Of a stretch of DNA of 64,000 nucleotides, positions 9,111-52,200 are shown one piece after another. Every line of letters starts with the position of its first letter. Within the stretch, counting starts at the first letter, position 1. The notes under the pieces are model-generated. The model was given only the letters and a program-made list of their open reading frames with translations, was not told the origin of the DNA and made no database searches. The position numbers were made by a program, and so were the translations under genes. This stretch comes from Dipteris shenzhenensis (Eukaryota), in NCBI GenBank assembly GCA_047967505.1, contig CM106538.1; one strand, written 5' to 3'.

Positions 9111-9342
9111 CCGTTTTGGTTTTCAACAAATCAAAAAAAAGTTATGAAGCATTGCATCACTTTAGCACAACATTGGAGGCCCATTGATCCATGCCTAATG
9201 TTCTCATTTAGGTGTGTACTTGGGTTCCGTTTTGGTTTTCAACAAATCAAAAAAAAGTTATGGAGCATTGCATCACTTTAGCACAACATTGGAGGCCCAT
9301 TTATCCATGCCTAATGTTCTCATTTAGGTGTGTACTTGGGTT
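9111..9342. repeat. Tandem duplication, 2 x 116 bp
   Basis: CCGTTTTGGTTTTCAACAAATC...GTGTACTTGGGTT at 9111 and 9227, about 2 mismatches. Confidence 0.92.
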
Positions 9343-10070: not shown

Positions 10071-11114
10071 TTAATATACAAAGAATAATAACATTAAAAA
10101 TTAAAATGCAAATTAAAAGTACAAAGTTCTAATTATAAATATTACCATTTTAGAAGATATCACTTGTTTATACTACTCCAGGAAATTTTTATTTTAAAAA
10201 ATCATGTCATGTTATCGATTTCCATCCTTTTTGTCTTGAAACAAAGCAAATCTATACAACATAACTAGATTCACATACAGTAAATTATAAGCTACATTAT
10301 AGTATAGGGTCAACATTTTCTTGGGTGTAGCCAATCACGAAACTATTTTCTCGGCCATTTTGGGGCCGCAACGCGATGCACTTATAGGTGAATATTAGAA
10401 TTTTGCACCGACCCACGCTCGTCAAAATTTTTTTCGATGTCATGAAGGCGCACTGGCGTAATAATGAGACTTAATCTATTTGTCATGAACACCACATAGC
10501 TCGATACATGACATCTCTGCACTGCTTTGTGCAACACAGTCTCTGGCCTACGTCGCTTGATCTCTTATCATCATGCAGCCTTTTACTGCCACAACTTTGC
10601 CACCTGTCACTCATTGGGCACTGCACCCATATGGATCATTAAAATTGAAGTTTGGCTTAGAGAGACCACCGCGCTAATTCTTGGCATAATAATTAGATGC
10701 AATCTATCACTTTGAACACCGCTGCAGTGCTGCTGACCACCTGTCATCGTGCAATCTTTTGCGGCATCTTTTCTTGTAGCCCATGTAGATCATAGGTTGG
10801 ATTGGAGAGACCACCATGCTGGTTTTTGGCATAATAATGAGATGTAATCTATCATTTTGAGCATCACCTTAGCGCAGTCTCTTGATGACCTGTCATCATC
10901 ACCCAGAATTCAAGGTTGTCTTAAAGAGACCACCGCATTGGTTCTTGGAGGTTATAGCTCTATTACCTATTTTTACGGATTACATGAGGAGGTTTATGAC
11001 GACCAGCGCACTGGCAAGTAGAAGGAGATCTATGAAAGCCACTGCACTGGTTCTTGGAGTTATATATTTGTGTACCAAGGAAAATGTATTCCGTTGTGCA
11101 ACCAAGCAAAATGC

Positions 11115-11266
11115 AATTGACGATATGACCCTTGAGGGGTCCCCTTTAGGGGCAAGGGCCATATCGACATGCCATTTCTGTCCAGTGGCATCTTGGATAT
11201 TGTATAATGCACATTGATATGGCCCTTGCCCCTAGAGGGGACCCCTTAAGGACCATATTGTCAATT
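11115..11266. mobile_element. Small hairpin MITE-like element (arms about 55 bp)
   Basis: AATTGACGATATGACCCTTGAGGGGTCCCCTTTAGGGGCAAGGGCCATATC and its near reverse complement ending at 11266. Confidence 0.7.
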
Positions 11267-12409
11267 TATTTTTTTCAAATTTTAATTGTATTTTTCTAGA
11301 TGTATCTCCATGCAACCACAATGGTGGGTTGTTGGAGTTATTATAGTGCCATTTTGGTCATAAACTAAGGAAATTGAAGGGAAATTGTAATCGTTTTTTC
11401 TTGCTATTTTAGTCCTTGTTGTTGCAGTAAATATAAATGAGAGCAAAAGTATAATTTATTGAGTGAAAATTAAGCAAAAGAGATTACAATGTACATCTAC
11501 ATCCAATAACAAGTTATATAAAAATTACCAACTTATATCGAGCAAAAATTGAATAGAGGTTCTTACATTTATAAAAACTTGGAAATTGCTCTGAGAGCCT
11601 TAAAGGCCAAAAGATTATAGTAGCTAGTAGCCATAACCATTCAAATTTAAAAGTTAACAACAATGCATACTGAGAGCCTCAAATTGAACAAAAACATATT
11701 ACATAAATGTAATAAAAACTCAACAATTGCTGAGAGGTTTAGAGACCAAAAGATCGTTGAGAGCCTTAGAGGCCAAAAGATTACATCCAGCCATTGCTGA
11801 GAGCCTCGTCTAAGCAAGAGGGAGTTTGTACAACTCAGTTTTCCACCAATCTGGCTTGTTGCATTAAAAAATTTAGGGAGCCAAAGGAGGATACGATGGA
11901 GAGGCCGAAGACCATGCACATTGCTAGGACTTAGATTATGAACCCCCCAAGAAGTCAAGAGTACTCTACTATGAAAATACTGAGGCCTTCATCGACATCT
12001 AGGGGGAACCCTTACATCACAGCCATAAAGAGCCCCTCTATGAGCATGTCATCTAAGGTGGTGACATGCAGATATGTGGGGACTCGACTATGGGAATGAA
12101 GGGTCTCCACTAGTGCTAGCGTTTCTACTCCAGGTGAGTGCAATACAATCACCTTATATGAGAAGGCAGATAACATTGGGATCATAGAGCATTGAGGGGG
12201 CATGGTAGTGGGCATGCTGAAGGTGAGTGGGTGAGCAGCAGATGAATAGGGGAGCAGATGAGTGATGAGAGTTGAAGAGGGAGAGTGGAGCAAAGTAGAG
12301 CAAGGACAAAAAAGAGCTAGAGGAGGGGTGTGGAGCAAAGTAGCAGAGTAGGGGCACATGACAGCAATGTAGTAAAATGCCAAATGTCACAGATCTTAAA
12401 TATATTATA

Positions 12410-32600: not shown

Positions 32601-33340
32601 CAGGATAGCGTTATGGCATCAGATCAATGCCTATTTGATCGGTGGGATAGAGCGAAAGCAACGATCGGTGGGATAGAGTTAAAGCAACAACCCGGCAGGA
32701 TAGTAAGTCGGCGGGATAGCATTATGGCATTGGATCAATGCCTGTTTGACCAGTGAGATAGTTGACTAATAGTAATTAATTAGGGCGACGGGTTAGGTAC
32801 TGGCATGTGTTAGTCCAATGGGATAGCATTATGGCATCAGGTCAATGCCTGTTTGACTAGTGGGATAGAGGCCTAAGGTGACGGGTCAGTGCGATACCGA
32901 GCTATGGTGACGGCGGGTCATGGGGATAGAAACTCACAATTCTGCCAACTAGTTTTTTATGATTTTGAAGTCTCTGTTCAGGTTTTTTTGTGATAGGCGG
33001 ATGCTAAATTACCTATTCTTCCTACTCTATGCAAGGAAGAAAAACAACATTTGAATGCAAATGAGAGATTTCTTGAAGAGGTGATTGTCAACACTCAAAA
33101 CCACTTCACTTTTCACCATGATTCCTCATTCTTGGTTGTTTTTTGTGAGTTTTGACATCATACGCTCCTTGGAAATCTTGCAAATTGTCTTCCTACCAAC
33201 TCAAAACACTAAAAAACATAAAAGCAAGCTTCAAATGATCCAAAAGGCTTTCCAAAAAGAAAATGATAGCTTCTTCTTTTCACTTCCTAAACTCACACTT
33301 CTCCACTCATTCCTCTCCTACAATTCCACTAACAAAGCTC
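26645..33340 (-). mobile_element. Degenerate Ty3/gypsy element retaining gag and protease only
   Basis: Retrotrans_gag-like ORF 30846-31223 (DPVSHVERFEQIC..LSLDGKAGQWF..WDTL). Decayed aspartic protease about 29650-29950 (..ILGKSWM). PPT-like AGGAAGGGGGGCA at about 27181-27193 next to a putative 3' LTR ending at 27180. No RT or integrase seen; outer boundaries approximate. Confidence 0.7.
32320..32930. repeat. Tandem repeats GGGATAGAGCTAAAGCA..CGAC in the gypsy leader
   Basis: More than 15 related units of 20-30 bp. Confidence 0.85.
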
Positions 33341-33768
33341 CAAGTTAAGCTTGAAATATGGGTAGATGATAAGAGAAAGCAAGTGCAATGAAAAAGCATA
33401 CCTTGAACTCCCCAAACATTAGGAAAAAAGGGAGCTCGTTTTCGGGCCCTCTAAGATTTTCGCTATTTTCTTCTTTATTTGTCACCAGAAATATGAAAAA
33501 AGCAATCAAATAGACTATCTCGCATCAGATGTGTCATTTCAGACTACAAACATGTCAGTCCTATTATTCTACATTCCTCACAAAATTTGGCATTAAATAT
33601 TTAATGAGATTCTTTCTCCACATAGATCTTGCATAGATTCTAGATCTCTTGAAATGACATGTGTCTGCTCTGCTATGATGAACTCATAACTAAATCATCT
33701 TGAGTGTTTTACTGAATATTTGAATCGATCTCGCTTGCGTTTAATGACTTGCTCTATAAGCACACAAG

Positions 33769-36480
33769 ATGAAGAGGCAAAGAACTAGTGAAGCTCAAAA
33801 AAATGGATGCATCCAATCTGACTATTGAAGAAGAACTTGAGAAGAAGTGATTGCACCATCTTCACATTGACTTAGAAGAAAAATATGCACCGGTGCAAAA
33901 ACGATGAAAAGGTCCACTTGTAAGTGCTAAGTAGAAGGAGAACATGAGAAGAGGAGGCTCGCAACACATTGACTTATGGTGCGATGGAAGCATCTACCTG
34001 ACATGTCCTTCAAAAAAACTCTACACCTCCATTTTCTAATCCCACATCGCTTTTAAGATTTGTGGGGGATGGAGCCAATAAATTGTATGGATACATTGGG
34101 GCTCACCAATCCAATATGGAAATGTACAAGATGCTATGTATGCAAGAGAGTACGGCAAAGATACAACAAATGGAGATTGTGTCAACTTTGACAGAGCAAC
34201 TACAAAGAGAAATCAAAGAGCACTCAAATACGAAGAAGGAGTTACGATGAGTAAGAAGGAAGAGAACAATTCTCAGGGAAAGACTACGAAACAAAATGAT
34301 TCAAAACATTGCAAAGTTGAAGGCTGGTAGTGGAGGATGCAAGCGTCGAATTCAACTAGTAAGGTAAGCAAACAGTTAATTTAATTTATCAATCCAATTC
34401 TCCAAATAGGATGTTCTTTATTCAATGATTCTTATTACAAGTGAAATTGGTATTGCATGTTTATTGTAGGAAAATATTAGGGCCTGCAAAGGAAAACATA
34501 GATAAAAGGATTGCTATCTAGTCATGTAGCAAAGGGATTGATTGAAGAGAAGAAGTTCAAAACAATATGATGGAATGTTGTGGAGGAATTCATATCCAAT
34601 AATAACGTTGACGTGGATACAATTCAAGAAGCTCTTGATGTCAATGGAGTCAACAAAAAAGGATATGCTTCAATTTACAATGCTCTCTCCTCTAACTTAA
34701 GAGATTAGAGAATCAAATGAGTGCTTCTACCCAGCCCAGCAGCTGTATGGAGAAAAAGAGGATTACTGAATACAGAAATAGATTAGTATATTGGACAATA
34801 AAACCATATTGAAGGGATCTATGATAGTAGTAAGGGAAGCACGGTGTATGATCCTTTTAATAATATTTTTGTGGACCTTAAACAAATGCAAAGAAGAATG
34901 GTAGAGTTTTATAATCTTTCATTCGAAGAATGCAAAGGTGTTTTGAAATTCGTTATCAAATTTGATGAGTGTGAGATTGTTAAGGGAAAAAAAAATTGAG
35001 TCACTGTTACCTTAATGAATTGAGCACTTGATACATCAATTATTGAATAAGACACAAGCTATTTTAGTGTGCAATCAGAAACATGTACGGTGGTTAGGCT
35101 CGTTTGAGGTATGCAAACATTCCATATTGTATAAGGCAATGCTCTTTTTTTCAATCCTAAGATAATCTTACAGTGTGAATTTTATTTTTCATAGGTCAAG
35201 ACAGAGGACCATAAAACTCTTTCTTGGGTTTTCCACCATACTGACATACCAACAATAATCAAGAGTCAAATTCAAGGTGAACATCTCCATGTTGCAGGCA
35301 AAGTGACTTTCAAGCAGAGTGGCATATGGCAGGTGATTTGAAAACGCTTAAGTGTATGTATAATGTAAGTAAAGGGGGAAATTCAAAGTCTCCTTGTCTG
35401 TATTGCAAAGAGCCAGCACATGTGATGGATCCTAAATGGTGGAAGAGAGCACCAAATAGAGACAAAGTAGATCCAGAATTTAAGGCTATTCTTGACATTC
35501 CATTAAGTAATGTTCATATATGCACATTGCATGCACTATGTCAGATTGTGGAGAAGTTGGTCTTTCTTTATATTGGATTTGCTTGGAAGCTTCATCCCAA
35601 AAGAAGTAGAAAACATGCTCTCCAAGCATTGGAGAAAGTGTTGTCTGATATGGGTCTCCATGGAGGCAATGTTCATATAACAAAGGATTTGAAAAAATCT
35701 ACAAATGGCAAAGAGGTACCAATCAAGCCATCTATTTGGTGGTGTCAAGGCAAGGAGATTTTTATCCCAGACAACAAACAAAAAAAATCAAGTGAATAAA
35801 TGCACAACACTTTCAAGGATAAACTATGGATTATGGAAGCAAGTCCATTATGTTGTTAAAGATCATGAGGCTGATGGGAAAGCATGGACTATCAAAGCAG
35901 AGGTGTGGAAGTCATTGGACAAACTCTTCATTTTTTGTGACAAAAAGGCATGGACAAAGAGTGATTACCAAGTTTTTAAGGAAGAGGTAAAAACATTTGG
36001 AAAGTCTATGAAAGAGGCTTGAACATCGTGCAACATAACTCATTATATGGTAACTATTAAAGTTTTCTTTCTTTCGTTATGCTTTTTTCATTTGTTTCTT
36101 CCACTGATACTTGCTCTTATAGTAGCTTATTATCTACAATCATCTTCCATATTTTCATTTAAAAATATGGTTGTCCAACAATTTGGTCCACACAAGGGAT
36201 GGAGAAATCACATTACACTGCCCATAACACCTTCTTTTGACACACACAACATTTTGGAGGAAGAGAGAAAGCAAACAACCTAAAAGAAGTATTTCAATGG
36301 TTTTATTGAGGTATACTACAAAGACTAAGCTCCAAGAGAAAAGTGAATACCTCACAAATTAAGTTAGCCTTTGCTTTGGCCCAAAAGCAAAGAAAGAATT
36401 AGATTTTGGACAACTCAAATGCCACAGAGAGACATGCCAAGAGGAGACATTCATAGATCTTTGTAAACCATAAGTGGATA
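33769..36480 (+). pseudogene. Intron-containing RAG1/Transib-like (CMC-Transib clan) DDE transposase, degenerate
   Basis: Assembled across frameshifts and three GT-AG introns (about 34364-34470, 35109-35194, 36049-36125): FVIKFDECE (D1), EWHMAGDLKTLK (D2), SPCLYC, VHICTLHAL, ITHYM/(H>L)IIYNHLPYF, WSTQGMEKSH (E). These parallel RAG1 KESCDG, DEKL, CTLC, ITNYFHKTLAH and WASEGNES. Confidence 0.7.
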
Positions 36481-37748
36481 GATAGATGCTAAATTTTAAA
36501 CAAACTTGTAACACAAAACCATTACAATTTATATATTGCTTGTGCAATGTACAATATCTTTCCGAACTTGTGAACTATTCTTCTACTGTATCAATGTCAC
36601 ACTTGTCTTCTGCTTTTTCTGCATCATCTTGCTTAATTGATTCGGCTCCTTCCATTTGAAACCCTTCACTTACTAATGGATTATCATGCTTGATTGGTTT
36701 GGCTCCTCCAATTTGAAACCCTTCACTTGCTAATGGTGGTTCTCTATATCTAAGAAGATGGTGCTTTCCATGAACATCTAGGCCCAAAATACTCTTGATT
36801 CCATGTGCATGAGCATATGATGTGTATGTAAGATAATATCCAACCCTATTGCAATCCCTGCCTGGATAGTAGCCAAAAGTGTGATAAGCAAAAAACTTTT
36901 CAATCAAAATGGCCTCTATTTGTTGGAACATTTCATGCCCACCCAAAAACCTGGACAAAGCTTTGAAAAACCAAACTACGATCTCCCCATCATTACTCAA
37001 TTGTCGATGAAAAACCAAAATCTTTGTAGTAGAGAGCTGGCTGATATAGTGGGAGAGGCTGGTAAGTCGCCCTAATCTCTCAGTTCCCCTTTCATGCCTT
37101 CGAAGGTAAGAATCATCTTCGACATTCAACTGCAAAAACCAAAATAATACAATTACATTTTTCACCTAAGATTAAGGAAAAATGAGATGACAAAAGAGAT
37201 AACTCACTTGTGGATTTTCATCTTCAACTAAAACTTTATCGATCCAAACGTTGATGCTGCTTTCTATGGAGATGTTGGGGCTTCTTTTTTGCTCCTCTTG
37301 CTTTCCCATTTTTTGTCAATCATAAGTTCTCTCTAAAGATGCTCAAAAGTCTCTTTATCAATGCCATATGAGTCCTTGAATTTCTTCACTTCTGTAAAGC
37401 ACATCGAAAACAATTCTTCTGAATTGAAGTTGTCCCTCTAATGATAGAGATTGATCCTCATTGGCAATAAAATCTCTTTCCAACAGGTAGGCTTGTGCAA
37501 TTATTGCCAATGCATAGTCCTCTCTCAAATCAAATATTGCCTGAATGTCACTAAGATGAACGTACTCAACATTGTCAATAAGGATAGAAGGCGGCAAGGA
37601 AATTGCATGGTTGCAGTTCTCCATATCAAGTCCTTTAATGTTTACTGGTCCTTTAATTGTATCTGCCCTGAGTGACACAACGTCTATTGTTGCAACTTTA
37701 GCCATGCAGCTTCAGCCATCTCATTTTTTAGATCAATTTCCTCCTTTG

Positions 37749-39903
37749 TGTGAAAGATCCAATATATGATCGCCACTAAGCCTAGTGCACACAAGATCAA
37801 CGGAAGAACTAAGGAGGCTCAAAGCACACTAGATAAGACATGAGAGGGAGATAGCAAATCTATATCTCTTGCAATGTGTATTCAACAATACATGATGGGC
37901 CTCTTATAAAGAGAGTGCCCTTTGAATAGTCAACCATGTGGGATCCTCTCATCCACATCTCTCCTTGTGGATATCCTCAATCCACATCTCCACATCATGT
38001 AGTCCACATCCTAGGGTGGCTACTTTAATTCTTTCCTATACCATACCTTAGCCTCTAATTATGTGCTCATGGCACCACAACTCTCAACACCTCCCCTTGG
38101 TGCCATGATCCTTTGGCTACTACAAGGTGGTCAGATGTGAGTTACATTCCATCACCTTCCCTTAGTGCATGCATTGCTACTTAAGGTGGTCAAGTGTAGT
38201 TTCTACATGTCAATACCTCCCCTAGGTGCTTTCATAGCTACTCTTAGGTGGTCAGGCTTGATTTACAAACATATGGGCTGAACGTGGCAAGGCTTTTTGC
38301 CTCTCAATACATTCCATTAATGTCACCTTTTGGCTCATGGCTTGATGATGATGGCATTTGCTGCTTTGCTTGGTGTAGCTTCATGCATGATGCTTTGTTC
38401 TTCCATGTGCCTTGATGCTTTATGTGTGGATGCCATGCTTTGTGCTATGGTCATCTCATGCACTTGTGCTTTCAGCATGCTTATTGCATTCATGTGTCGC
38501 TTTACCATTTGTTGCAAAGGTCTTTCTTCAATGGCAATGTCTAATTGCATACAATGATTCTGACTGGATAGGCGCGTAGAGCTCAAAAAGACAATTACTT
38601 TTCCTTTTTGGAGCATGTGCAAATTCTTCCTAGATTGCAAGTTACGCTTTGTTGAAGTTTTTGTGAAGAAGAGGGGGCCTGATGATGTGGCAGAGGGATT
38701 CACACGTTGCACTCACACTGTGCTTAGGAAGAGGGCTTAGGTGGCACTTAGCTAATCCTACCCTAACCATAAGCCTTAACCATGGTTTAACTTAACCTCA
38801 CCCAACCTTATCTACCACGTGGCATAGACTAGAGCACTGACCAAACCAACTAACCCAGGGTTGCTTTGAGCTAACCCAAGTCAAAGACTTATTTGCCATG
38901 TGTCAAATTGTGGTGAACCTTAGGGAAACTTTGTGGAGAAATTGAGAAATAGGGATGGTGTCGCGGTTTCGGAAGATCGTAGGGAGCTCGAAGGCGGTAA
39001 TGGAGAAGAAGTGCTATGCTTTGTTGTGGAAGAGCCGTGTAGAAGGCGCTTGCTGCTGTCGATGCTGGAGCCTTTGGAGGATCACTTTCGGCTATTTTAG
39101 GGTTGTGGACTAGAACCATGGTGGATTCCATCGCTGGTTGAAGGTGTTTGTAGGGAGGAGCTTGTAGGAGCGACTGATTCCAGGAGATCGCTTGCCATCA
39201 AGCTCAGCGGAGGTAATGTTGGAGATGATGATGATGACAGAGGCTTGGTTCCTACTGTTGGAAGCCTTGTTGCGATGGAGCGGCTAATCATTGGGACTGA
39301 GGCACTGCTGCCATCTGACTCTGTTATGTCATAGGTGATAAGGCCGCATGTGGCTAGTTGCTTTGTGCCTTGCTTGTTGCAAGAGATGGCTAGAGCCAGA
39401 CGTTGCTTGGCACTATAGATGGCTGGCGAGAGGCTTCGGCTATCACAGAGGGCCGTTGTAGAAGGCGAGGCTATCTACAGTGGGGTTGAGCATAGATTGT
39501 GTGTTGGTCGCTAAAGGTCGTCTATCTTAGGCTTGTCGTTGGAGGTCGCTCTAGCCACACTAGAGGTTATGGCTCTGGTAGTCGAGAAGTCTATCAGGAA
39601 TTCAGATTCAGAGGAAGCTTGAGCCAACCCAAAATCACAGATCTTTAGCATGCAGTCATTGCAATTCACAAGGATATTGCAAGTACTTCAAGCCTCTCTC
39701 TCTTTCTCTGTTAGTCGAGGATCACAGATCGGAAGAGCAATGCAACATTTCTTCTTTCCTCAAAGGAGAAAGTAGAATCCAATCCTAGCAAAACGACTCT
39801 CTGTGAGCTTTGGTCTTCCTATATAATGGTGTTCCCCCTTCTCCCTTCAGATCAAGCCAAGGTTCCTCTTTCCGCGGACCTCTATCTCAAAACTTGGGTT
39901 TGC

Positions 39904-39955
<52 letters not shown>

Positions 39956-40391
39956 GACTTAATGTCAAAAACTCTCCCTAACATCAAGATAAGAGGGTGC
40001 CACTCACTCTAAACTACCTAGGCTCGTGGGCAACCTATGCTCTGATACCATGTGAAAGATCCAATATATGATTGCCACTAAGCCTAGTGCACACAAGATC
40101 AACGGAAGAACTAAGGAGGCTCAAAGCACACTAGATAAGACATGAGAGGGAGATAGCAAATCTATATCTCTTGCAATGTGTATTCAACAATACATGATGG
40201 GCCTCTTATAAAGAGAGTGCCCTTTGAATAGTCAACCATGTGGGATCCTCTCATCCACATCTCTCCTTGTGGATATCCTCAATCCACATCTCCACATCAT
40301 GTAGTCCACATCCTAGGGTGGCTACTTTAATTCTTTCCTATACCATACCTTAGCCTCTAATTATGTGCTCATGGCACCACAACTCTCAACA
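37749..40391 (-). mobile_element. Young non-autonomous LTR retroelement (copia-derived, TRIM/LARD-like)
   Basis: 341-bp LTRs at 37749-38089 and 40051-40391 with one mismatch seen. TSD CTTTG/CTCTG, iMet PBS 40039-40050, PPT 38090-38100. The 1.96-kb interior lacks gag-pol apart from a faint RNase H-like trace near 38280-38400. Confidence 0.93.
39906..39952. repeat. (CT)n microsatellite
   Basis: About 23 CT units. Confidence 0.97.
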
Positions 40392-41461
40392 CTCTGCATC
40401 TTGCTCATGCTCAGAGTCAACTTGAGAAAGCTATATTGTATCCATGCTCTCTTTCAATACCTCTTCTTCAGGTTGAGTTGTCTCCATGTTATAGAAATTA
40501 AGGTACATGACAAAAGCCATACTCTCCTCTAGAAGCCTACACTTTTTATTTTGCATAGTGCATTTTTCTTTCAAGTGCTCTAGAAATAAGTCATATCTCT
40601 TGGCCATATAACTTCTAGTATTATTTGTAGTAGCAACATCCTTTAGAGGTGAATATAGGGCTTACTTTCTATAACAACTTTTCCATCCCTTGTCAGAGTA
40701 TCAAACCCTTCATAATACTCTGCCAAAATGTCATAGTGTTGTGACATTATATCTGAGTAATTTAGACTCTTATTGAACATCTCATAAAAAATATGACACT
40801 CCTGATGTGCATTGGACTTGTGGAGAAATTCAAACAACATCTCATTGGAAGACTTCTTCTCCTCCCTTTGAGGACTACTTGATGGCTCCGCAAATGTCAT
40901 TTGCAGAGATCTTCTTTCTACTGGTGCCGTCACATAAGTTCTTTGCAAATTTACTGCACCATACTATGTGTGTTGAAATGCAAATGTGATTACATAATTG
41001 AAAGTAAATTTTTGCACCATATGTTGAAATATCAATGTGAACAATAATTGAAAGAAAGACCTTAAAATCGTAATTATTCGACATACCTGGGTTGCAAGTT
41101 CTCATGGCAAATTTTCTCACACTCCGCTTTCTAGTTGTTTTAATATTGTCAACTTCACATGGTCAAGCCAAAAAACAAAGAATAGCATTAGCAAACAAAA
41201 AATATTCAAAAAATACTTAATGATTTTAGCTATTCCTAACATATTCTGAGTGACAAAGAGATAGCCACAAAAGAGTGTTGAATCTACTTCATATGTCCAC
41301 TGATTTGAGTTTCTTTACAAAAAGGATCATGTATAACATGCCATGTGTCACAAAAGAATCTAAAAGGATTACGTGTGAACTCTAGAAAGGAGAGTCCATA
41401 AAAATTATCTTCATGTCATGACATGAAGGAGTGTTTGAAAACATAACAAGTGACTCACTTG

Positions 41462-43057
41462 GAGGCAGTCAATAGAGCGAGCGAGAAAAAGCGAGCAAGC
41501 CCAAAAAAGCGAGCGACAATTAGTTAAAGTGATTGGAAAATCAAGCAAGCAAAGAAAGAATCTAAGTTTTTTATAAATAATTGCTTGAAGTATAAAGTAT
41601 TCAAAAGAGTGGTTATGTGTCACATTTCTTAAAATTGAGTAGTCTAAAGTTAAGGACTATTGTAACATGACCCCATTTGGGTTTGGCAATTGTCCTGGGG
41701 GGTCACTCATAAACATGTAACATACCACTTTTGTGCATTGAGGGGTATTTTTTAGTGGGGGGACTTACATGTTGTTTGTGTGCATGAGGGGATTTATAAA
41801 ATAGCAACTTAATGTAATTTATATATGTAGATATTTTAAAATATAAACACATACATGGGTTCAACCATTTACATGACAAAATGTAAATTGCAAGAACAAG
41901 GGTAATTTTTAATACATTCTTGCTTGCACATGCTTTATGGGTTTATGAAGAGTGATCCCCAGAGTGTAATTAAAAGGTAGAGGATGTTAAATTTTTGCCA
42001 AAATAGACAGTGTCTTCTCGCTCCCCATTATGGGAAACCTTGCTTTAAACTTGGTGTAAAAAATTGGACAGAATCTCACAAAATTCATATTCTGATGCAC
42101 ACAATTTTTTTAGATGGTGCAAAAAGGCATGATATTGATCTAAATCATGCCTTGTCATTTGATTTGATATGTAACATTATGCCATTTATATTTGACAATA
42201 AAAAGATGTAGGGATGTTAAAACTCATCTTTTGGGCCAAAAAAATCATATGTTGACATCTTGCAAAAAATACAGAGATGTGAAAATGCCCTCTTTTGGGC
42301 CAAAACAGGGAGCGTGTTATTTTGGCCCAAAAGAGGGCATTTTCACGTTAACACACTCCCTGTTTTGGCCCAAAAGAGGGCATTTTCACATCCCTGTATT
42401 AACGCGCTCCCTGTTTTGGCCCAAAAGAGGGCATTTTCACATCCTTGTATCTCTTGATTTACAAGTCCAAACAAGGTCATGTTACATATCAAATCAAATG
42501 GCAAGGCGTACTTTAGATGATTATCATGTCTTTATGCACCATCTAGTAAAATTTAATGCACCAAAATATGAATTTGTGGTTAATTTGTTGCATTAGTGGG
42601 AAGGATATTTTTCCAGTAAAAACAAAGAAACATGGGTTTCATTCCAAGAGTGAATAGAGTTAAAAAAGCTAAGCATTTACATATGCATGGAATTTAGACT
42701 AATCCATGCAAGGAGTCCTTAGAAACATCCCACCTGTGTGGAAGGTTGCATTGATGATCTCAATTACTCTAGTGGAAAGAGAGAACTTGATTGCAGTTAC
42801 TGTAGGGTTTGTCTTCAATACAAACAATGAATTGGAAATTGAACATACAAACTATCTCATGGATGATGTGAAATTAGTGTTAGTGGCTCAGAAAGTTATA
42901 TACGTATTTAACCTTCTAGCATTGAGGAAACATATGGACTTTTGAATAAGTTATTATTTTTTGCTACTGAAATGGGGGATTTATAAATCTTATTGTTTTT
43001 TATTGCTCGCTTTTTTTGGCTCGCTCGCTTTTGGTTGCTCGCCTTTTGGTAATCCTC
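41462..43057. mobile_element. Non-autonomous foldback DNA transposon with GAGG termini
   Basis: TIR pattern GAGG-N11-GCGAGC..AAAAGCGAGC..AAAAAAGCGAGC at both ends, 5-bp direct repeat ACTTG on both flanks, internal palindrome about 42075-42590. Confidence 0.7.
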
Positions 43058-43459
43058 ACTTGGTACATGGCATAAAGAATTGGGGGAAGTGATGAAGATG
43101 AAATGTCTCTTCTATCCTCAATTTTTTATACAATTGGGGGAAATGATGAAGATGTAACGTTTTTCATTCTCGTGAAATAATTTTGGCATGGATTCCAACA
43201 AGCCACGTGAGGAGGACGAACATGAAGATAATGAAGATGATAAAGACAAGAAATACGAGTCCGGAAGATCAATACCAAAGACCAAGGGTGCATCAATTAA
43301 GGGAGAAATGAAGATGACATGGATGCATGTCTCCCTTCTCCTCCACCCCCACCGCCTAGACCACCCCTAAATGACCCTCCCCCCATCTATTACCATGACT
43401 ATGTGAGTGTCTCTTTTTCCTAATCTCCCTATGAGAATTCAATCTCGTGTTTGATGTTC

Positions 43460-45295
43460 ATAAAAGCAATTTCACTAAGCAAAGCCGTGTGCAAGCCATG
43501 CTCAAGTACAAAGACCAAATCGTTTTTTACCATAAGATTGAAAGGTGTTCAAAAAAGCGATTTTATGCATGCGTGCTCGAGTACAAAGACCAAATCGCTT
43601 TTTTAAGCATGTAATGCAAGAATGACAATTTCAAAAATGCGATTTCATATGTGGAGCTTAAGGTAATATGTAGTAGACCTTTTTTGAGAGACTACGATTT
43701 CTACATGCTGAAAAACGCGATCTCAACATAGGAAGAGGTGTCAAATGCCCCAAATCGCGTTTTTGAACTGTTTTTTAAATTGGTTACTCACACAAATCTT
43801 TGCCAATAGAAACACTAGTGGAATTGATTCTTGCATGTAAAAATGGAATACATGTTGCATCCTCGTTGATGGTATTAGTGTTGAGTCATCTACGCCACCA
43901 CGAGATCTAAATAACGAAAGCCAATACCTTTTTTGGCGTTGTTAAACAGACAACTTTATAGTGGGAAGGACTACTCTTGTGATGGCTATGCTTCTCCTAA
44001 GTCACTCCTCCACAAATGTCACCTTCTCGCAAGAGCCTTCTTCCACTGCCGCTTCTCGCAAGAGCCTTATAGAGCGACGCTTCTCACAAGAGACCTTCCG
44101 TCGCTGCCAGTCGTCTGTTAGATTTCATGCATGGTGCGAGGCCAAGTATTCAATCTTGACAATCCCAAATGAGGCATACACTCGAAGATAGTAGACGAAT
44201 CTTTAAAAACGGCTACTGGGCCCACCAAACCATTAATAGCGAGTTTCCAAATAAAGGTTTACAACCATAAATAACAAGCTTCCAAAAAAAGAGACATGTG
44301 GGGCCCATTTTGGCTAAAAGTCCCTAGTTTTCCTAAATCGTCATCATAAGGTAGATGCAAGGTAGCGATTCATTATCAACACCTTCATGCAAGGACCAAA
44401 GGCATTCTCCTACTCGCAAATCCCAGGTTGGTGGTTTGCTTTTCTGTTTGTAATCTCCTTATGATAATTCAAGTGTGCACAGAATCGTGAGAGTCATGTT
44501 TATGTTGAAAAAAGCGATTTCAAACATGTGGGCTTAGGCAGAATGGCCATATCGCATTTTTGAGCGTGTTTGAGCTTCTCTTGGAAAAATCGATTTCCCA
44601 TGTGGCAACATGCTATATTGATTTCCCATGTGGCAACATGCTACATAGATTTTTGCATCGCCTTGATAACAAACGTAAACTTCATGCTAAAAAAAGCGAT
44701 TTATTCTGTGGAGGTAGAGGTAACATGCCATATCACTTTTTTGAGAATCTACGAAAAGGCAATCATGAATAGTTTGTTGAAAAAGGCAATTTCACATCTA
44801 GAGATTTGGGTAACGTGCTAGATAGCTTTTTCAACCGTGTTTCAAACAAAACTAAACAAGGTTCAAAAATTGATATCTTCTATTGGAAAATGCGATTTTA
44901 TGTAGGGAGGTGTTGGGTAACAAGCGAAATTGCTTTTATGAGCGTGTAGGAAGGTGCAATCATGAAGATTTATGAAAAAGGCAGTTTTTGGAGACCCTAA
45001 ACAAAATCCGGTCAAAAAAGCAATTTGTTGCTTCCTAGTAAGCCAATCCACACCAAATCACTTTTTTGAGCATGATTTAAAGATAATCCAAGCTTCATGT
45101 CAAGATTCGCTCACAAATGCGATTTGATGCTTCCTAGCAAGCTATCTCACAAACTTGCTTTGTGGAGCATCTTGTATAGACATTTCTAAATAAAGAAAAA
45201 TGTGAAGCATGTTTTGATGATCCAAAATCTCAATCTATTAGAAAACGTGATTTCATAATGTCGCACGGTTTTGTTTCATATCAAATCACTTTTTT
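43460..45295. repeat. Two clusters (43460-43770, 44505-45295) of alternating-orientation AAAAAGCGATTT-like motifs
   Basis: About 24 degenerate copies, e.g. 43551, 43592(rc), 44508, 44549(rc), 44689, 44730(rc), 45014, 45056(rc). Confidence 0.75.
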
Positions 45296-46063
45296 AAACT
45301 ATTTGGACATTTTGAACATTTTGGACAAGGTTTTGCTCAATAAAAAAACAAAGACTTTGCTATGGACTCGATAAATAGCAATCGAAACACTTAATTGCAC
45401 GAATGTGAGAACATACATACTTGTTGCTTGCTGCTCCATAAAACATGGCCCGAGATTATCCATGAAGTGTTGTACAAAGGTAGCACTATGCCAAATATGT
45501 GGATCTTGGAGTTGTAAAATAAGACCTTTACCAATTATAAAAACGTTGTAGTCGGTGGGTCCCAAGAGAGCGCTTGCGTCGAGATAACGGCTATCCTAGC
45601 CATTATTAGCTCGCATATGTAAGCCTCCAGTAAGGGTCCACTTTCAACCTACCCTATATTGGGTTCTAGTGGCCATTTACAACAAAGAAAGAATGGCTAG
45701 CATGATTTTCCTTTATTATCATCAACTCGTGCATTACTATCAACCCAAGATAAGGGTTGGACTGTCTCTCTTTTTCCTAAGGTAGATAATGATCTGTTCG
45801 TATTGTTTAGAGTATATTGTTTAAAAAAGCTTTCTTTAGCATATTTTCCATTGTTTGAAGCATCCTCACATATGACTAATTTGTTTGCTTAACATGTAAA
45901 GTTGCATAAGAAAGTGGTTTGGTATGTTGGTGTACTATGGTGTAATTCTAAATCTCTTTAATGAGCATGTTTTGCATATGTTCTATAGTGGTTTGCAATC
46001 TTACAACCTCTCTTGATGCTTTGAGGATTGTGTTTGATGTTTTTTTAGTAAAGAAGATTGGAT

Positions 46064-46490
46064 ATGGCAAGGATCAAATCTACAGCGAGAAAACATGGAA
46101 AAGGTCCTGACATCGTAGTAGTTGCTGCCAAAGTAGAAGCATCTCAAAGCGGCTGTCACCAAAGAAAGGGTAAATCAGTGCATATACTCAAGCAAGCTAA
46201 ACTAAGGAGGTTTAAGCAAAAAACATTAGCACTAAGAGAGATTAGACAAGCATAATTGGCCATGGGATTTGCTATCCCAAAAGCCCCATTCCAAAGGCTT
46301 GTCAAGAGAATTTGTGTTGAAGATTGGAATCTTGAACATCGATGGCAGAGAACAGCTTTGTATACTCTTCAAGAAGCTGCTAAATATTATATGATAGAGT
46401 TTTTTCAGGATGGAATGCTTGTAGCTGCCCATGCACATAGAGTCACACTGATGGTTAAAGATATTGAGACAGTGAAGAGGGTAAGATATA
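46064..46490 (+). pseudogene. Divergent histone H3 / CENH3-like histone-fold domain (in-frame TAA at 46253)
   Basis: MARIKSTARK...RRFKQKTLALREIRQA*LAMGFAIPKAPFQRLVKRICVEDWNLEHRWQRTALYTLQEAAKYYMIEFFQDGMLVAAHAHRVTLMVKDIETVKRVR aligns end to end with H3. The stop lies at the conserved Gln of KYQ. A probable 5'-UTR intron spans about 45782-46048. Confidence 0.92.
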
Positions 46491-46679
46491 GATATGACAA
46501 GCTCCTTCATCCCATTGATTGGGTGGATAAAAAAATGAGACATCTCGACAGCCAAAGGATGAGGGCATTCAATACAAGAAGTGACACACAACAGAGACAC
46601 AAGGGCCAAGGCTGCCCATGAAGAGTACATTGCACTGGAAAGGGAGAAAAGCAACTAGCAATTTGTTCATGAGAACTTT

Positions 46680-47610
46680 AAGAGATTCGATAAATTGTCA
46701 AAGGTTGGCTGAGTTGGGTTCTAGATTTTTAATTTCTTATGTGACTATGTTTGAGGCAAGAGATATTACCATGACAATTGAATGCAAAAACGCACTCAAA
46801 TCAAAGAATGAGTGGGTCGCTTATCAGATTATCATGGATGTCCTTTGGTAAGTTTTTTTAGATGTTTGCATATCTGATATAGTACAGGTGTTTGAAGAAA
46901 CTTTTCACTGCATTGGATTTATGTCCTCCCAATGTAAACACCATTCAAATTGTTATGTTGGTGAGAGAACTATTTCCTTTTCCACAAACTTGATGCATCT
47001 TTCTTCACAACCATCTCTCAATGATGATATCCTTGTGCAGGCACCACAACAAGATGATCCTAATTCATGTGGGTGGAGAACATTATTCCATGCCAAGTAC
47101 ATGCTATACACTTTTTTTGAAGCACAAATACTAGAGATGGTAAATATAAAGATCTTTATTGCATATCTTATATATAATGACAAGATGTCAATGCATTTAT
47201 GATACATTTCTCTCTCCTCACATCGTCAAGAGGACAGCTACACATCCATTGATATAAATGGATATAGAGCTCTTACAATTGAAAATCTACTCAAGTATGC
47301 AAAGAAGGCTCCTAAAGAGAAGCAAAAAAAGAAGCCCATTCGTGTTGGATCTAGTTCCTCTGTTAAAGGGCACGCAAATCAGGAGCCACTGATGGTGGAT
47401 GAGGAGCCGGTAAAGCAGGAGCCTGTTAAAGTTAATGAGGAGAAGATTTAGGAGCAAGTGAAGGTGGATGAGCAGAATACACAAGAGGTCGCTCACAAGG
47501 AGGAACAACTGGAGGAGAAGCAGGAACACATTTATTCCGAGCATCAGCCTTTTCAGCAATCTTTCTCAAATCCTTCCATAGAGCCTTCCACTGAGCAACA
47601 AACTCCTTGA
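46680..47610 (+). pseudogene. Ulp1/SENP (peptidase C48)-like domain remnant plus acidic tail, downstream in the same transcription unit as the H3 domain
   Basis: ITMTIECKNALKSKNEWVAYQII resembles the Ulp1 N-terminal L..L...WL.D.II motif. APQQDDPNSCGW matches the oxyanion Gln and catalytic Cys motif. GT donors at 46848 and about 47140. The catalytic His/Asp segment was not found. Confidence 0.6.
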
Positions 47611-49220
47611 ATGAAGTGGATATGCCATGGCATGTTTAATGCTGGCTTATGGATGTTTATCATCTGCAGTAGCTACAGTCCATGTCATTTAACTTCTCTT
47701 GACAATTATATTCTTATAACACAATTTTGTGACAAAACAGATGTTGGGATAAAGGCCAATGGCCTAGTATATACCCCTTTGTACCATACATACATAATAA
47801 GAGCTTACCTTGATCTGGATGAGTTAGCACCCACAATTTCGATGTTCTTCCTTTCTTTGTTGCTCTCTGATAAGACCTCCTCTCCATCAATTGGTATCAA
47901 AGCTTGGTTGAGTGAAGCCAACAAGGAGACTGTAGCATTGCGGTGTGGTTGTGCCAAAAGCCTGAACTTGTTGCGTGGAGTCTCCTACTGCTGCTGCCCT
48001 TGGGAGCTGTATTTTGACATATACTAGCTCGTTCTTACTGTTTCAGCCATATATATTAGGTTGCCTCGACTGTTCCAGCAGTCTATTGCGTTGTTTAAGT
48101 AGGGAAGAAGGAATATTATCCATCTACGGTCAAAAACGACCTGCTGCTCTGAATTCCAGCCACTAGAAGTTGCTTTTATGGGGCCCGAAAGCAAAAACGT
48201 CTTTTGCTTGTGGCAGACTCTAATTGATCAAAGGCAGCTGGTACATTCAGATTTCAGTTGGATTTATGCCTTCAAATTTATGCATATCAAGCCAAAGGTT
48301 GGCTGAAAGTGATTGCTTACAATTGATGCATTTTGAGCCTTTGTTTAGCTGAGAAAGTGAGCATAAGTGAGCAGTGTTTTTCTGAAGCTGTCTTGTATCC
48401 TAGGAAGGCATTATTTTTTGTGAGTGTAATACTCTTCCCACTAAGGGAATTTTTTGGACAACAATTTTTAGAATTGTTGGGCTATTTCATTGGAGTTTAT
48501 GCCTCAAATGCTTCAAGAAAAATTGGTGATTGGCTTGTGACAGCAGTAAAAAGTGAGTAAGTGGCTGTTTTCACAAGTGAATATCAGAGAATCCATGAGG
48601 AATTGTCTTTTGAGTTGAACTAAGTAGTTTTAGTTTTTTGGACAATCTACAATCTTGTTTTTGAAAGTGTTTCAATTCGAGTTTTGGAGAAAAAGTTATG
48701 ATGCCCGGTATGCCCATGATCTATAGTTTTGACAGTTTGACAACAGCTAGAAAAAGTGAGCAGGGACCTGCATTCAGCAGTGAATATCAAAAAATCCATA
48801 ATGAATTTGGACTTATAGTAAACCAAAAGTTTGTAGATCTATTGGTTGTCTACAACTTTGGTGTTTACAGCAAAGGCAACCGAGTTACAGTTGGGAAGAT
48901 ATTGATAGCTCAAAACAGGCCAAAACTATTGCAAATTGTTATTACAGCAGTAAAAGTTTGCAGGTGGTGGTATCCAACAGTAGATATAAGGAGATCTGTA
49001 AGGATTTTGGAATTGCTGTAAACTGAGAAGTTGTAGAGTTTTCTACTAGCTACATTTCTTCTGTCACACTTTTTGCATCAGAGCTACCGTGCAAAAGCTA
49101 TTGGCTACTTTTGGGATGCCCTGAGGTCACTTACAGCACATGTATTTGTGACTATGATAGTGTGGTTGTTGTCATTACAGTTAATATTTTTTGGCCTTGA
49201 GTTTGATACATTGTTGCAGT

Positions 49221-52200
49221 TGTAAAGAATAAGGGAGAGAGATAGGAGACTCAAGTTCAGCTTTCTTCAACAACACACAAAAGAGAGAGGACACAAGGTT
49301 GGAGGGTGAAGCCTTTCTTCACTTTTGCACACAACAACAATACAATAGAAGAGGGAAATACCCTATATGTCAAAACCTAGAATACGTGGTTCATATGTGA
49401 ACCCAAACCAAAAACATACGTGGTAGTCTAACTACACCACGAGTACAACTAACATAGGCGGTGACATAAATGATAGTCACCCAGGAGATATGTCGGGGAT
49501 AGAGCTTGATATCTCAACACTCCCCCTCAAGCTCAAATCCATCTCACGTACACCAAGCAAGCTTCTAAATCTGCAAAGCTTCTCGGTACCCAATGCCTTC
49601 GTAAAGATATCAGCCACCTGCTCCTCAGTGCTGACATAGACAAGATCAATCTCACCAGCTAGAACCTTCTCTCTCACAAAGTGATAATGCACCTCAATGT
49701 GCTTCGTTCTAGCATGATAAACTGGGTTATTAGCAAGCATGATGCTGCTAATGTTGTCACAATGAATGACAACTGCTGCATGAACTGACTGTCCCATATC
49801 TGCAAGTAGCTTCCGTAACCAAGCTACCTCACATGCAGCCATTGCTGCACCCCTGTACTCTGCCTCTGTGCTCGACAAGGCAACTGTTGGCTGCTTCTTG
49901 CTGCTCCAACTGATGGCACCACTCCCAAGGGAAAACATAAAACCACTAGTAGATCTCCTGTCTGAGACACTACTAGCCCAGTCAGCATCTGTGTATCCAT
50001 GTACCTGTAATGCACACCTAGCTTCATAAAACAGTCCATAATGCAATGTGGACTTCACATACCGCAGTATGCACCTAGCCGCATCCAAATGTGGCTTCCT
50101 CGGTGCCTGCATAAACTGACTCACCAGCCCCACAGCATAGCTCAAATCTGGCCTGGTTATAGTCATGTAAATCAAGCTACCTACGATGCGCCTGTACATA
50201 GTAATATCTTCAAGAAGCTCACCTGACTCTGCATTGAGCTTCACATTCTGCTCCAATGGAACAGAGATAGGCTTACAGCCTGTCATCCCATATTTGGACA
50301 GCATGTCCAAACCGTATTGCCTTTGCAATAGCCATATCCCACTCGGGGATCTAATAACCTCAATGCCCAAGAAGTAACGCAGCTCTCCCAAATCCTTCAT
50401 CTCAAATTTCTGCTTCAACAGCAGCTTCACTTCATTAATGTCTGCATCACTATCACCTGTAATAATCAAGTCATCAACATAGATGACTATAAGCACAATC
50501 CCTCTGTTTGTCCTTTTCACATAAAGTGAAAAATCTGAGTTGGAAATTTGAAATCCAATAGTGACAAGATATTGCCCTATCTTGTCTGACCATGCCCTCG
50601 GCGCCTGTTTTAAGCCATACAAGGCTTTGCGCAACCTGCATACAAAATTGGGATGTGCATTATCCTCATAACCTTTTGGCTGCATCATATAAACCTCTTC
50701 CTGCAAATCACCATGCAAGAAGGCATTTTTCACATCCATCTGATGCAAAGACCATCCCTTTGCAGCAGCCATAGCAATTACTGCTCTCACGGTTGCCATC
50801 CTTGCAACTGGGCTGAAAGTTTCCTCATAGTCAATTCCATATGTCTGTGCAAAACCTTTGGCAACCAATCTTGCCTTGTACCTGCTAACAGACCCATCAG
50901 CATTGTGCTTTACTTTGTAAACCCACTTGCAGCCAATAGCCTTCTTATCATGAGGCAAAGGCATCAAATCCCAAGTGTGGTTTGCATCCAAGGCAGCCAT
51001 CTCTTCATCCATAGCTGCTTCCCAATTTTTATGCCCTGCTGCATCCTCAAAACATGTGGGCTCTGGCTCCTCTAGAACCTTGACCATATAAGCATAGTGA
51101 TGTGCTGTATACCCATCATATCTCAGCCTGTCAACTGGATACTTAATACGAGTGGATTTCCGTACAACTGGATCAGTTGCAGGAGTCTTTAAATCATGCC
51201 TGCTTTTCCTTGCACCAGGTGTAACAACAGAAGGAATCCCAAGTTCCTCATCAAGGCTCATTTCAGAGCCACTTGACTCTCCATCAACATGAGAGCTACT
51301 AGCAGACACATCAAACACTGGAGCATGGTCCACTTTTTCTTTTCCCTTATGTGATACCTGCACAACACTATCAGGACTGCCATGTGACGATTCACTAGAT
51401 CTCAATCTCCCTGTCCATGCATTAGATCCACTAGTAGAGGACTCTCTGGGTCCAGTCAAGGCTTGAGATTGCTGCTCTGCATTTATTGCAGCATTCCCAT
51501 TTCCTGCATCTGCATCTCCTACCATAACAGTTGGTGCATACCAGCTGCTCATTTCATCAAAAACAACATCTCTGCTCACTTGCATTTTGCGGGTGGAAGG
51601 GTTATAACAGCGATACCCTTTCTGGTGCTGAGCATATCCAATAAAGATGCATTTTTCTGCCTTTGGATCCAGCTTTGTTCTCTTCTCATCAGGAACATGA
51701 ACATAAGCTATGCAACCAAATACCTTCAAGTGAGAAATATCTGGTTTTTGGCCTGTATACATTTCTTCAGGCGTCATGCCATGGACAGCTGCAGTGGGGG
51801 TTCTGTTCATAATATAAACAGCAGTTGCTACTGCTTCAGCCCAAAAATAATCAGGCATGTTTTTCTCATTTAGGATCGCCCGTCCTACTTTTGCAATATG
51901 CCTGTTCTTCCTTTCTGCAACCCCATTCTGCTGAGGGGTAGACCTGCATGAGTACTTCCTTTGAATTCCCTGTTCTTTCAGATATTCACAAAATTCTTCT
52001 GAAAAGTACTCTCCCCCTCCATCAGATCTTAGCACTTTAATATGCACACCTTTCTCTTTTTCAACCATGGCCTTAAAAGCCTTGAAATGGCTGAACACTT
52101 CACTTTTGTGCTTCATAAAATAAATCCACACCTTCTTAGTGTAGTCATCAATAAACGTCACATAATAATGGCATCCACCAATAGAAGCAGCTTTGGTTGT

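Follow-up and report, generated by a model that had tools for sequence, protein, structure and literature searches.

How the RAG1–RAG2 pair originated is a long-standing question: when, and why, did a Transib-like transposase gain a second subunit? The locus described here raises this question in a plant-like genome. In the window (the whole 64-kb stretch of DNA that was analysed), a first-pass annotation had proposed a three-gene DNA transposon made up of a transposase, a convergent orphan gene and a divergent gene combining histone H3 with Ulp1. Do these genes form one element, and of what kind? On balance, we favor the explanation that the block is a defunct copy, riddled with insertions, of a multi-gene cut-and-paste transposon of the RAG1/Transib kind, with an accessory partner gene and an H3-like cargo gene; the view of the element as a deeply divergent lineage of that kind is part of this explanation and shares its modest advantage.

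Gene layout and the convergent partner

The features of the block are collected in Table 1.

Table 1. Features of the candidate element and of the insertions within it (window coordinates).
Feature	Position	Strand	Basis or remark
Left flank/leader of element	33417..33802	+	A 3161-nt related-genome contig is similar from 33417 onward
Transposase gene, RAG1/Transib-fold DDE, decayed	33803..36432	+	Homology, motifs, fold of relative P0076
Partner ("orphan") gene, 3' part: middle block (REDY), intron, conserved C-terminal domain	36575..37748	-	
LTR element, young, small	37749..40392		Inserted into partner gene; not part of transposon
Partner gene, 5' part: N-terminal helical domain and C-x-H...C block	40393..40900	-	
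Insertion, ~1.57 kb, inverted-repeat flanked	41475..43045		Upstream of partner gene; boundaries approximate
Two 12-mer arrays in spacer	43461..45294		Candidate protein-binding sites
H3-like histone gene	46064..46618	+	Pfam PF00125 (Histone), E 9e-23
Decayed coding frame behind H3 fold, Lys/Glu-rich tail	46585..47610	+	Stop deficit against shuffles

Relatives of the transposase and its E motif bear out the plus-strand gene of the first-pass annotation. A tblastn search with 136 relatives gives a footprint of 34628–36282, which full-length relatives widen to 33842–36348 and the E motif extends to 36432; the ATG is at 33803, and the gene has about 840 codons. The 3161-nt contig of the related genome covers 33417–35542. 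The partner gene runs in the opposite direction from an ATG at 40898–40900 to a TAG at 36575–36577, with an intron at roughly 37166–37207. It is split in two by a 2.6-kb LTR element whose 342-nt LTRs (37749–38090 and 40051–40392) carry one difference (99.7% identity). Upstream of the partner, inverted-repeat arms of 43 nt (41477–41519 and 43000–43042, 84% complementary) flank the ~1.57-kb insertion, with palindromes nested within it at 42081–42575. Both younger insertions that had been proposed are therefore present, and the block 33417–47610 less the two measures about 10.0 kb, as compact as first described. The same description held the three genes to be similarly decayed, which is only roughly true: the transposase shows 24 stops across 863 aligned codons (with at least three frame changes), the partner 6 across 441, and the H3-like gene 1 across 185.

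The "orphan" is one real gene, interrupted by the young LTR element. The intact 627-aa partner ORF of a related locus, L015, matches the window by tblastn in three colinear pieces: residues 123–224 align to 40963–40646 (E 4e-8), residues 253–290 to 40562–40449, and residues 345–615 to 37627–36737 (E 7e-30). Partner ORFs are open across 395–627 codons in four loci (L006, L013, L014 and L015), and the partner is a gene of about 600 codons belonging to no known family. Its lack of a kelch or PHD signal had been remarked on before; in agreement with this, nine partner ORFs from five loci give no Kelch, RAG2 or PHD match in Pfam at E ≤ 1, and an AF2 model of low confidence (pLDDT 50.4) consists mostly of helices with short hairpins. 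An Atlas search with the partner returned no usable match.

Co-occurrence of the genes, the check that the first-pass annotation had suggested, was scored in 20 related metagenome contigs, 10 of which extend 500 nt or more downstream of the transposase and are evaluable. The same convergent partner stands tail-to-tail behind the transposase in seven of these, two (L002 and L005) have an H3-like gene on the same strand as the transposase, and one (L004, with 1372 nt downstream of the transposase) has neither. In the seven partner-bearing loci the orientation is always convergent, and the transposase and partner ORF ends lie 47–170 nt apart or overlap. The corresponding gap in the window is about 120–175 bp, so the convergent arrangement first described stands and its distance of about 100 bp does not. 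One partner-bearing locus, L014, falls in a different deep clade of the transposase tree than the other six; deep branches alike retain a convergent, non-RAG2 second gene. Because the partner recurs in 7/10 evaluable contigs, we regard the tail-to-tail pair as conserved, and transposase and partner very probably constitute a single unit.

RAG2, TnpA of En/Spm and the Myb-like protein of Harbinger are accessory partners in their respective systems. The partner described here could be an accessory subunit that fills the same job via an unrelated fold, most likely by recognizing the 12-mer sites of the element (described below) or by controlling the enzyme; this is a role that we only infer, because the partner model is poor. 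As intact relatives exist (the L014 transposase ORF of 843 codons and the 627-codon L015 partner), the need for the partner in transposition is directly testable.

Spacer arrays, the H3-like gene and the extent of the element

The spacer between the partner and H3-like genes is motif-rich, as had been claimed. With at most one mismatch, the 12-mer AAAAAGCRATTT is matched 15 times in the 64-kb window, exclusively within 43461–45294, against an average of 2.1 and a maximum of 6 in shuffles. The 12-mer AAAAAGCGATTT forms two arrays, at 43461–43763 and 44509–45294, mostly arranged in inverted pairs with a spacing of about 28 nt, and a similar CTCCYTATGAKAATTCAA stretch precedes each array. Comparable palindromic arrays lie just past the partner 5' end in L006, L013 and L014. 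The 12-mers are candidate protein-binding sites that might serve as subterminal repeats or as a shared control region; they are not clearly subterminal repeats, because the left end of the element has at most one degenerate copy.

Beyond the spacer, the histone assignment holds. The predicted protein begins with the tail MARIKSTARK (read by eye) and continues into a histone fold whose best PDB sequence matches are H3 and CENP-A chains (E 5e-16); the reading frame contains one TAA stop, at 46253. The H3-like ORFs linked to transposases in L002 and L005 match the Pfam Histone family at E 5.6e-26 and 7.3e-34, respectively, and the window copy is 40% identical to that of L005 across 106 residues (E 1e-18). 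The window and L005 copies have the derived residues IPKAPF, RW and QDG in common, where solved H3 chains have IRKLPF, and the H3-like genes of both related contigs share derived residues with the window copy. In L002 and L005, the H3-like gene directly follows the transposase with no partner gene between them, and all three genes together are seen in none of the related contigs. Thus, of the three-gene element originally proposed, the tail-to-tail pair is upheld and the H3 link recurs, and the full trio is found in no contig. Because H3-like genes with derived residues adjoin transposases in two contigs, a chance neighbor is unlikely. The H3-like gene probably belongs to the transposon lineage; whether it lies inside the same element copy as the transposase of the window is an even call. 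If a DNA transposon lineage does carry an H3-like gene, a mobile element would, unusually, be supplying its own chromatin protein.

Behind the histone fold, the frame 46585–47610 has 4 stops in 342 codons, compared with 23.6 ± 4.5 (minimum 9) in 2000 shuffles, and is a decayed coding frame of about 340 codons. It contains the motif QAPQQDDPNSCGW (PQQ..SCGW, seen by eye), which was first taken as Ulp1. That label is not borne out: at E ≤ 10 Pfam gives no match, Peptidase_C48 included, for 46852–47199 or for 46585–47199 and 46585–47448 read through with X at stops, and the frame finds no PDB sequence match and no homologue. As the frame is decayed, it may still be an Ulp1 remnant. The H3-like ORFs of L002 and L005 stop about 12 residues past the fold and have no C-terminal extension. 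Under our preferred explanation, the H3-like gene together with its extension would be chromatin cargo of the lineage.

The ends of the element were not located. Comparison of the left flank with 36000–49500 gave no inverted repeat, and again neither TIRs nor a TSD were detected, as in the first-pass annotation. CACNGTG is absent near 33168–33420 and at every candidate right end; it occurs 9 times in the window where 11.8 are expected, the nearest of these at 34840. Cover by contigs of one related genome gives a further view of the block, in which depth is summed cover and not a copy number. Depth steps up at the left flank from 0 (bin 32584–33167) to 1857 (bin 33168–33751), is about 1850 over that flank, reaches 8800–11900 over the transposase core and falls from 462 (36088–36671) to under 10 (36672–37839). 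It is under 10 over the partner 3' half, 48–83 over its 5' half, 0–3 over the spacer and 33–72 over the H3-like gene. Most copies in the related genome seem to lack the partner and H3-like genes. In one related contig 33470 is fused to 36170, and at equal depth another junction connects 36221 with 40483; a deletion derivative spanning transposase and partner would look like this.

These data bear on whether the element ends before the H3-like gene. An element of transposase and partner only would terminate in or near the 12-mer arrays, leaving the H3-like gene and its extension as a neighbor, either a distinct element of the same lineage, perhaps non-autonomous and beginning at the second array, or a stray pseudogene. 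The contigs of L006, L013 and L014 fit such a terminus in that they stop 100–970 nt past the partner 5' end, right after the palindromic arrays; the division of the window arrays into two blocks, each after a similar CTCCYTATGAKAATTCAA stretch, agrees with it, as do the nearly uncovered spacer beside a somewhat covered H3-like gene and a 3765-nt related contig that matches 46231–46540 only. However, in L002 and L005, H3-like genes with the same derived residues are immediate neighbors of transposases from this lineage, and terminal arrays sit poorly with a left end that has at most one degenerate 12-mer. We therefore consider this shorter element possible but unlikely.

Fold and class of the transposase

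The window copy of the transposase retains the motifs FDE (D1), AGDLK (D2), CLYC, HICTLH and QGMEKSH (E). Among 1.84 billion representatives it has 136 relatives at E ≤ 1e-3, nine of them at E ≤ 1e-30; an alignment of the family reads LDE, GDLK, C.YC, H.C..H and MEKSH, with D250 in at least 90% of rows and C320 and H323 invariant. By analogy, the D, D and E motifs are putative catalytic residues, and the CxxC...H..H between the second D and the E is a putative zinc site. The fold was assessed on an AF2 model of the relative P0076 (pLDDT 78.4), not of the decayed window copy. Every Foldseek match of this model at E < 1e-3 (ranks up to 49) is a RAG1, BbRAGL or HzTransib chain. VIA-align superposes it on RAG1 residues 459–1008 with Z 21.7 over 443 residues (rmsd 4.3) and on HzTransib over 432 residues; the next fold after the RAG1/Transib kind is the P element, at Z 10.5. 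The model has the RAG1 core architecture of dimerization/DNA-binding, pre-RNase H, RNase H, Zn-binding and C-terminal domains. Together, these measurements place the transposase almost certainly in the RAG1/Transib fold class, and it would be expected to move the element by cut-and-paste in the manner of RAG1 and Transib.

At the sequence level, Pfam offers no family for 18 transposase relatives (E ≤ 0.1) or for the window ORFs (E ≤ 10), and the family profile has 0 matches to PDB sequences at E ≤ 10; these searches reveal no homology to RAG1 or Transib families. Within one cluster of language-model neighbors, 26% of members carry RAG1 Pfam domains. Such results leave room for a transposase of CACTA/Mirage/Chapaev type, or of a new sister superfamily, rather than Transib proper, a classification compatible with any of the layouts considered. 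The layout of two genes plus repeated 12-mers would in that case correspond to that of En/Spm, with TnpD, TnpA and subterminal repeats, and 12-mers in both orientations recall the TnpA sites of En/Spm, which are short motifs repeated in both orientations. The language-model clusters include Plavaka and Transposase_21 as well as RAG1 domains, and the missing match to RAG1 Pfam families and missing CACNGTG termini point the same way. Against it, Pfam has no match to Transposase_21, Plavaka or other transposase families, and the structural match spans all core domains of RAG1. We know of no solved structure for any CACTA/Mirage/Chapaev transposase, so Transib and these groups cannot be told apart by the fold match; we hold this classification to be doubtful.

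An element of the transposase alone, about 3.1 kb long (33417 to ~36500) and adjoined by unrelated genes by chance, would account for the drop in related-genome depth past 36671, for L003 and L004 being 99.7% identical until about 40 nt beyond the transposase stop and divergent thereafter, and for the absence of a second gene from L004, but it is very improbable given a convergent partner so close to the transposase ORF end in 7/10 loci from two distant clades, with long and open ORFs.

The family combines a full RAG1 core fold with no detectable RAG1 sequence similarity, and its members come from a plant-like genome and from environmental eukaryote contigs. The open-access text that we searched holds no description of a non-RAG2 convergent partner or of a transposon-carried H3-like gene; the element is a variant of the RAG/Transib kind undescribed in that literature. 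A bolder and distinctly improbable proposal is that of a RAG1-fold lineage outside animals with a convergent two-gene core, a partner of different fold and its own H3/CENP-A-like histone, in which the partner would tie the enzyme to chromatin bearing the element's histone or to the 12-mers. If so, the logic of a transposase with a chromatin-reading partner, as in RAG1–RAG2, arose more than once or predates the capture of RAG2.

Comparison with known transposon systems

Some plant transposons, including Kaonashi MULEs and some CACTA elements, carry Ulp1. The block resembles them in that the Ulp1-like motif stands in a decayed frame adjoining a transposase; it differs in having no Peptidase_C48 match at any threshold tried, and in the extension-free H3-like genes of its relatives. 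En/Spm (CACTA) and MuDR are plant two-gene transposons that encode a transposase and an accessory protein, and mudrA and mudrB form a convergent pair. The putative accessory protein, the short repeats in both orientations and the convergent pair are shared features; in contrast, the element here has no Pfam match to Transposase_21, Transposase_24 or MULE families, no CACTA termini or terminal repeats were detected, and its transposase fold is closest to RAG1.

Classical Transibs are not known to encode more than one protein. The transposase shares the fold of HzTransib (6pqx; Z 20.5) and its arrangement of DDE motifs, interrupted by a Zn-type CxxC and H..H insertion, whereas the element has a second conserved gene and no Pfam or PDB sequence link to Transib. 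Transib and RAG1-like elements have TIRs starting with 5'-CACNGTG and a 5-bp target site duplication (features described in PMC4411706), neither of which was seen here. Tao et al. (2022; PMC9435367) list 39 "Transib-like" plant proteins, which, as listed there, may or may not be members of the transposase family of the window.

RAGL transposons have a second conserved gene tail-to-tail behind the transposase (PMC7204232). The ProtoRAG echo heard in the first-pass annotation is real for the enzyme, which has the same RAG1 core fold as amphioxus BbRAGL (6b40; Z 19.6, beside 21.7 for RAG1), and the gene pair is likewise convergent and closely spaced. It does not extend to the partner, which is not RAG2-like in any of the nine ORFs searched against Pfam, or to sequence-level similarity with RAG1 families, and no RSS-like CACNGTG ends were found. 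The host here is plant-like, and the lineage has an H3-like gene linked to it.

The transposase family and its fold

The window is eukaryotic and plant-like. When 150 stop-to-stop ORFs (45 codons or longer, ~32.5-49.6 kb) were scanned, the only Pfam family over the curated cut-off was Histone (46256-46618, E 2e-18). Because this was the sole family named, the transposase and its 'orphan' neighbor, a minus-strand gene lying tail-to-tail with it, were both invisible to Pfam, and relatives were therefore needed to identify them. With a 172-codon ORF (35281-35796) as query, we recovered 136 proteins from 1.84 billion representatives at E <= 1e-3, 9 of them at E <= 1e-30, with a best identity of 60%. 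Their alignment is marked by the blocks LDE...ERV..T.MN, VEWHLAGDLKTLK, C.YC, IPL.RVH.CTLH, THYM and W.AQAMEKSH. Not one of 18 relatives scores meaningfully against any Pfam family, a profile from 14 relatives found no hits among PDB sequences, and the transposase alignment picked up zero relatives when viral contigs and prokaryote genomes were scanned.

We then turned to structure. The AlphaFold model of one relative, P0076, was built from 47 aligned sequences (pLDDT 78.4, pTM 0.76). All Foldseek matches to this model at E < 1e-3 (ranks up to 49) are RAG1, amphioxus RAGL or Helicoverpa Transib chains, and Hermes comes next at E 1.3e-3. VIA-align superposes 443 residues on RAG1 459-1008 with Z 21.7, followed by HzTransib (Z 20.5) and BbRAGL (Z 19.6); after these come the P element (10.5), ISCth4 (9.8) and Hermes (7.2). 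The modeled family therefore has the whole RAG1/Transib core fold, although its relationship is beyond sequence detection. The transposase called in the first-pass annotation is thereby borne out, the window gene occupying 33803-36432. It has no second copy in the window and is dead: its 863 aligned codons include 24 stops, and the frame changes several times. Directly upstream of its ATG, 33719-33800 has a translation similar to that of L012:85-200, a related metagenome contig (FESISLAFNDLLY and YESLSLFLVNIYY), a hint that a leader or an upstream exon may be conserved here.

A conserved convergent partner

Scanning metagenome contigs with the transposase alignment yielded 20 loci of 1.4-6.1 kb, in whose ORF maps the transposase is immediately followed by long minus-strand ORFs. 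The intact 627-codon partner ORF of locus L015 matches the window as three colinear segments (40963-40646, 40562-40449 and 37627-36737; E 4e-8 and 7e-30), which set the limits of the window partner gene (see table). This gene has the same intron as its relatives, after the ...DDEN exon end, and is interrupted by an LTR element (37749-40392) with 342-nt LTRs that are alike at all positions but one. The inserted element is small (2.6 kb) and apparently non-autonomous, with a weak protein-kinase piece at 39514-39687 (Pfam Pkinase E 1.6e-4, under cut-off) and a summed depth of ~860-1070 from related-genome contigs.

In ten of the 20 loci the contig extends 500 nt or more downstream of the transposase, and these were evaluable for downstream genes. 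A convergent partner is present in seven (L006, L011, L012, L013, L014, L015 and L017), an H3-like gene stands in its place in two (L002 and L005), and one (L004) has neither; all three genes were not seen together on any contig. A tree of 49 transposase core segments groups the window and six partner-bearing loci in a clade of 11 rows (support 100/99) and places partner-bearing L014 in a separate deep clade; the transposase-partner pairing is therefore old. The 'orphan' is thus convergent with the transposase, as first described, but it is a conserved partner and not an orphan.

Pfam has no family for the partner, a language-model search with the L015 protein gave no usable neighbor, and a homologue search with the window partner ORF (near lengths) found nothing; the intact L015 partner retrieved only itself (P0137) and no protein outside its own cluster. 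Its structure model is poor (pLDDT 50.4), with confidence confined to residues ~190-290, an N-terminal helix-hairpin domain. The best match in a wide VIA search (Z 5.7) is under the stated noise level, and the likeness of the N-domain (204-278) to the Dachshund DNA-binding domain 1l8r_B (Z 4.8), also below noise, is a lead at most. Consistent with the earlier reading, Pfam, the language-model search and this poor model give no sign of a kelch propeller or PHD finger. Complex prediction with the L014 transposase core and two partner pieces, run without family alignments, scored 0.00 and speaks neither for nor against a complex. An internal duplication, suggested when MAFFT aligned the middle with the C-terminal block, was rejected (profile-profile probability 0.3%).

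The H3-like gene, the spacer and the element ends

Read through a single TAA, 46064-46618 encodes MARIKSTARK... and a histone fold (Pfam E 9e-23), and the best PDB relatives of the protein are H3 and CENP-A chains. Among the loci, tblastx with the window H3 region matches only L002 and L005, whose H3-like ORFs (Pfam E 5.6e-26 and 7.3e-34, respectively) lie on the transposase strand and start ~90-280 nt downstream of its ORF. Over 106 residues, the window protein matches that of L005 at 40% identity. Because these two proteins have IPKAPF, RW and QDG in common, whereas solved H3 chains have IRKLPF and other residues, we read the H3-like genes as one probable capture kept by the lineage. In L005, a second ORF behind the first H3-like gene (2587-2856, +), cut by the contig end, carries MVRVKKTPTRTNQ... 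with the look of an H3-type tail, and the L005 element may therefore hold tandem histone-like genes.

Behind the H3 fold, the 342 codons of the frame from 46585 contain 4 stops, where shuffles give 23.6 ± 4.5; this stretch once coded for a longer protein or for a second gene. The L002 and L005 ORFs lack a C-terminal extension, and a homologue search with the Ulp1-like ORF (longer lengths) found nothing. The Ulp1 label, which had been drawn from the motif QAPQQDDPNSCGW alone, is backed by no profile or sequence search.

The motif-rich spacer holds up well: the 12-mer AAAAAGCRATTT (at most 1 mismatch) occurs 15 times against 2.1 expected, always inside 43461-45294, in two arrays of mostly inverted pairs. 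L006, L013 and L014 have palindromic repeat arrays just past the partner 5' end, differing in sequence and, by eye, containing GCGA. Both sets are candidate binding sites and could be either subterminal repeats or a jointly used control region.

As in the first-pass annotation, no terminal inverted repeats or target duplication of the window element were found, nor CACNGTG ends; likeness to a related contig has its left edge at 33417. A search for terminal inverted repeats inside L006, L011, L013, L014 and L015 found an inverted repeat only in L014 (43 nt, 372-414 and 5032-5073, E 1.5e-4), with no counterpart elsewhere. L003 and L004 cease to be identical ~40 nt past the transposase stop, at an apparent splice acceptor, which may be either an element end or an assembly branch.

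Directly left of the element, 32285-32870 is a dense direct-repeat array of GGGATAGAGCTAAGGCA-like units (~26-27 nt), with depth near zero in the related genome, and 30277-32180 (minus strand) has open frames of 105-248 codons that by eye resemble a gag-like stretch of a further retroelement. At 49221-54665 lies a very young Ty1/copia element; its ORF of 1467 codons (49477-53880, minus strand) is intact, and its LTR stretches (49221-49476 and 54410-54665) are 100% identical. This LTR pair is the sole repeat between the block and the rest of the window, which contains no further copies of the block.

Features of the window and depth summed over related-genome contigs
Feature	Position	Strand	Summed depth
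Left part	33168-34335		~1850
Transposase gene start	ATG at 33803	+	
Transposase N-terminal blocks common to full-length relatives	from 33842 onward	+	
Transposase core			8800-11900
Transposase 3' part	E motif WSTQGMEKSH, on to 36432	+	
Interval	36088-36671		462
Partner gene	ATG 40898-40900 to TAG 36575-36577	-	
Partner 3' half			< 10
Interval	40176-41927		48-83
Spacer			0-3
H3			33-72

Depth across the block and comparison with known systems

Depth was taken from contigs of the only sequencing run in which related sequence was found (likeness at least 80%). Although summed depth is distinct from copy number and diverged copies are drawn to conserved coding sequence, its unevenness suggests that most copies in the related genome are without partner and H3. 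One related contig joins 33470 to 36170, and an equal-depth joint links 36221 to 40483, the pattern that a deletion derivative across transposase and partner would give. Word depth at 35849 is 23372, summed over 7 contigs, and the RAG1-fold family may be very abundant in this genome. Among the contigs matching the transposase core at 34920-36087, some are collapsed, their word depths running to thousands.

The first-pass observations are largely right, and their interpretation as one three-gene transposon is partly supported: the link between the H3-like gene and the lineage recurs, and the place of this gene inside the window copy is putative. The accessible text of Tao et al. (2022; PMC9435367) mentions 39 plant 'Transib-like' proteins and does not describe such partners, and searches of open-access text, with PMC4411706, PMC12973397, PMC12130436 and bioRxiv 10.1101/2021.11.30.470311 consulted, turned up no account of the partner gene or of histone cargo. 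What stands firmly is that two conserved genes form a convergent pair, a transposase of the RAG1 fold and a novel partner.
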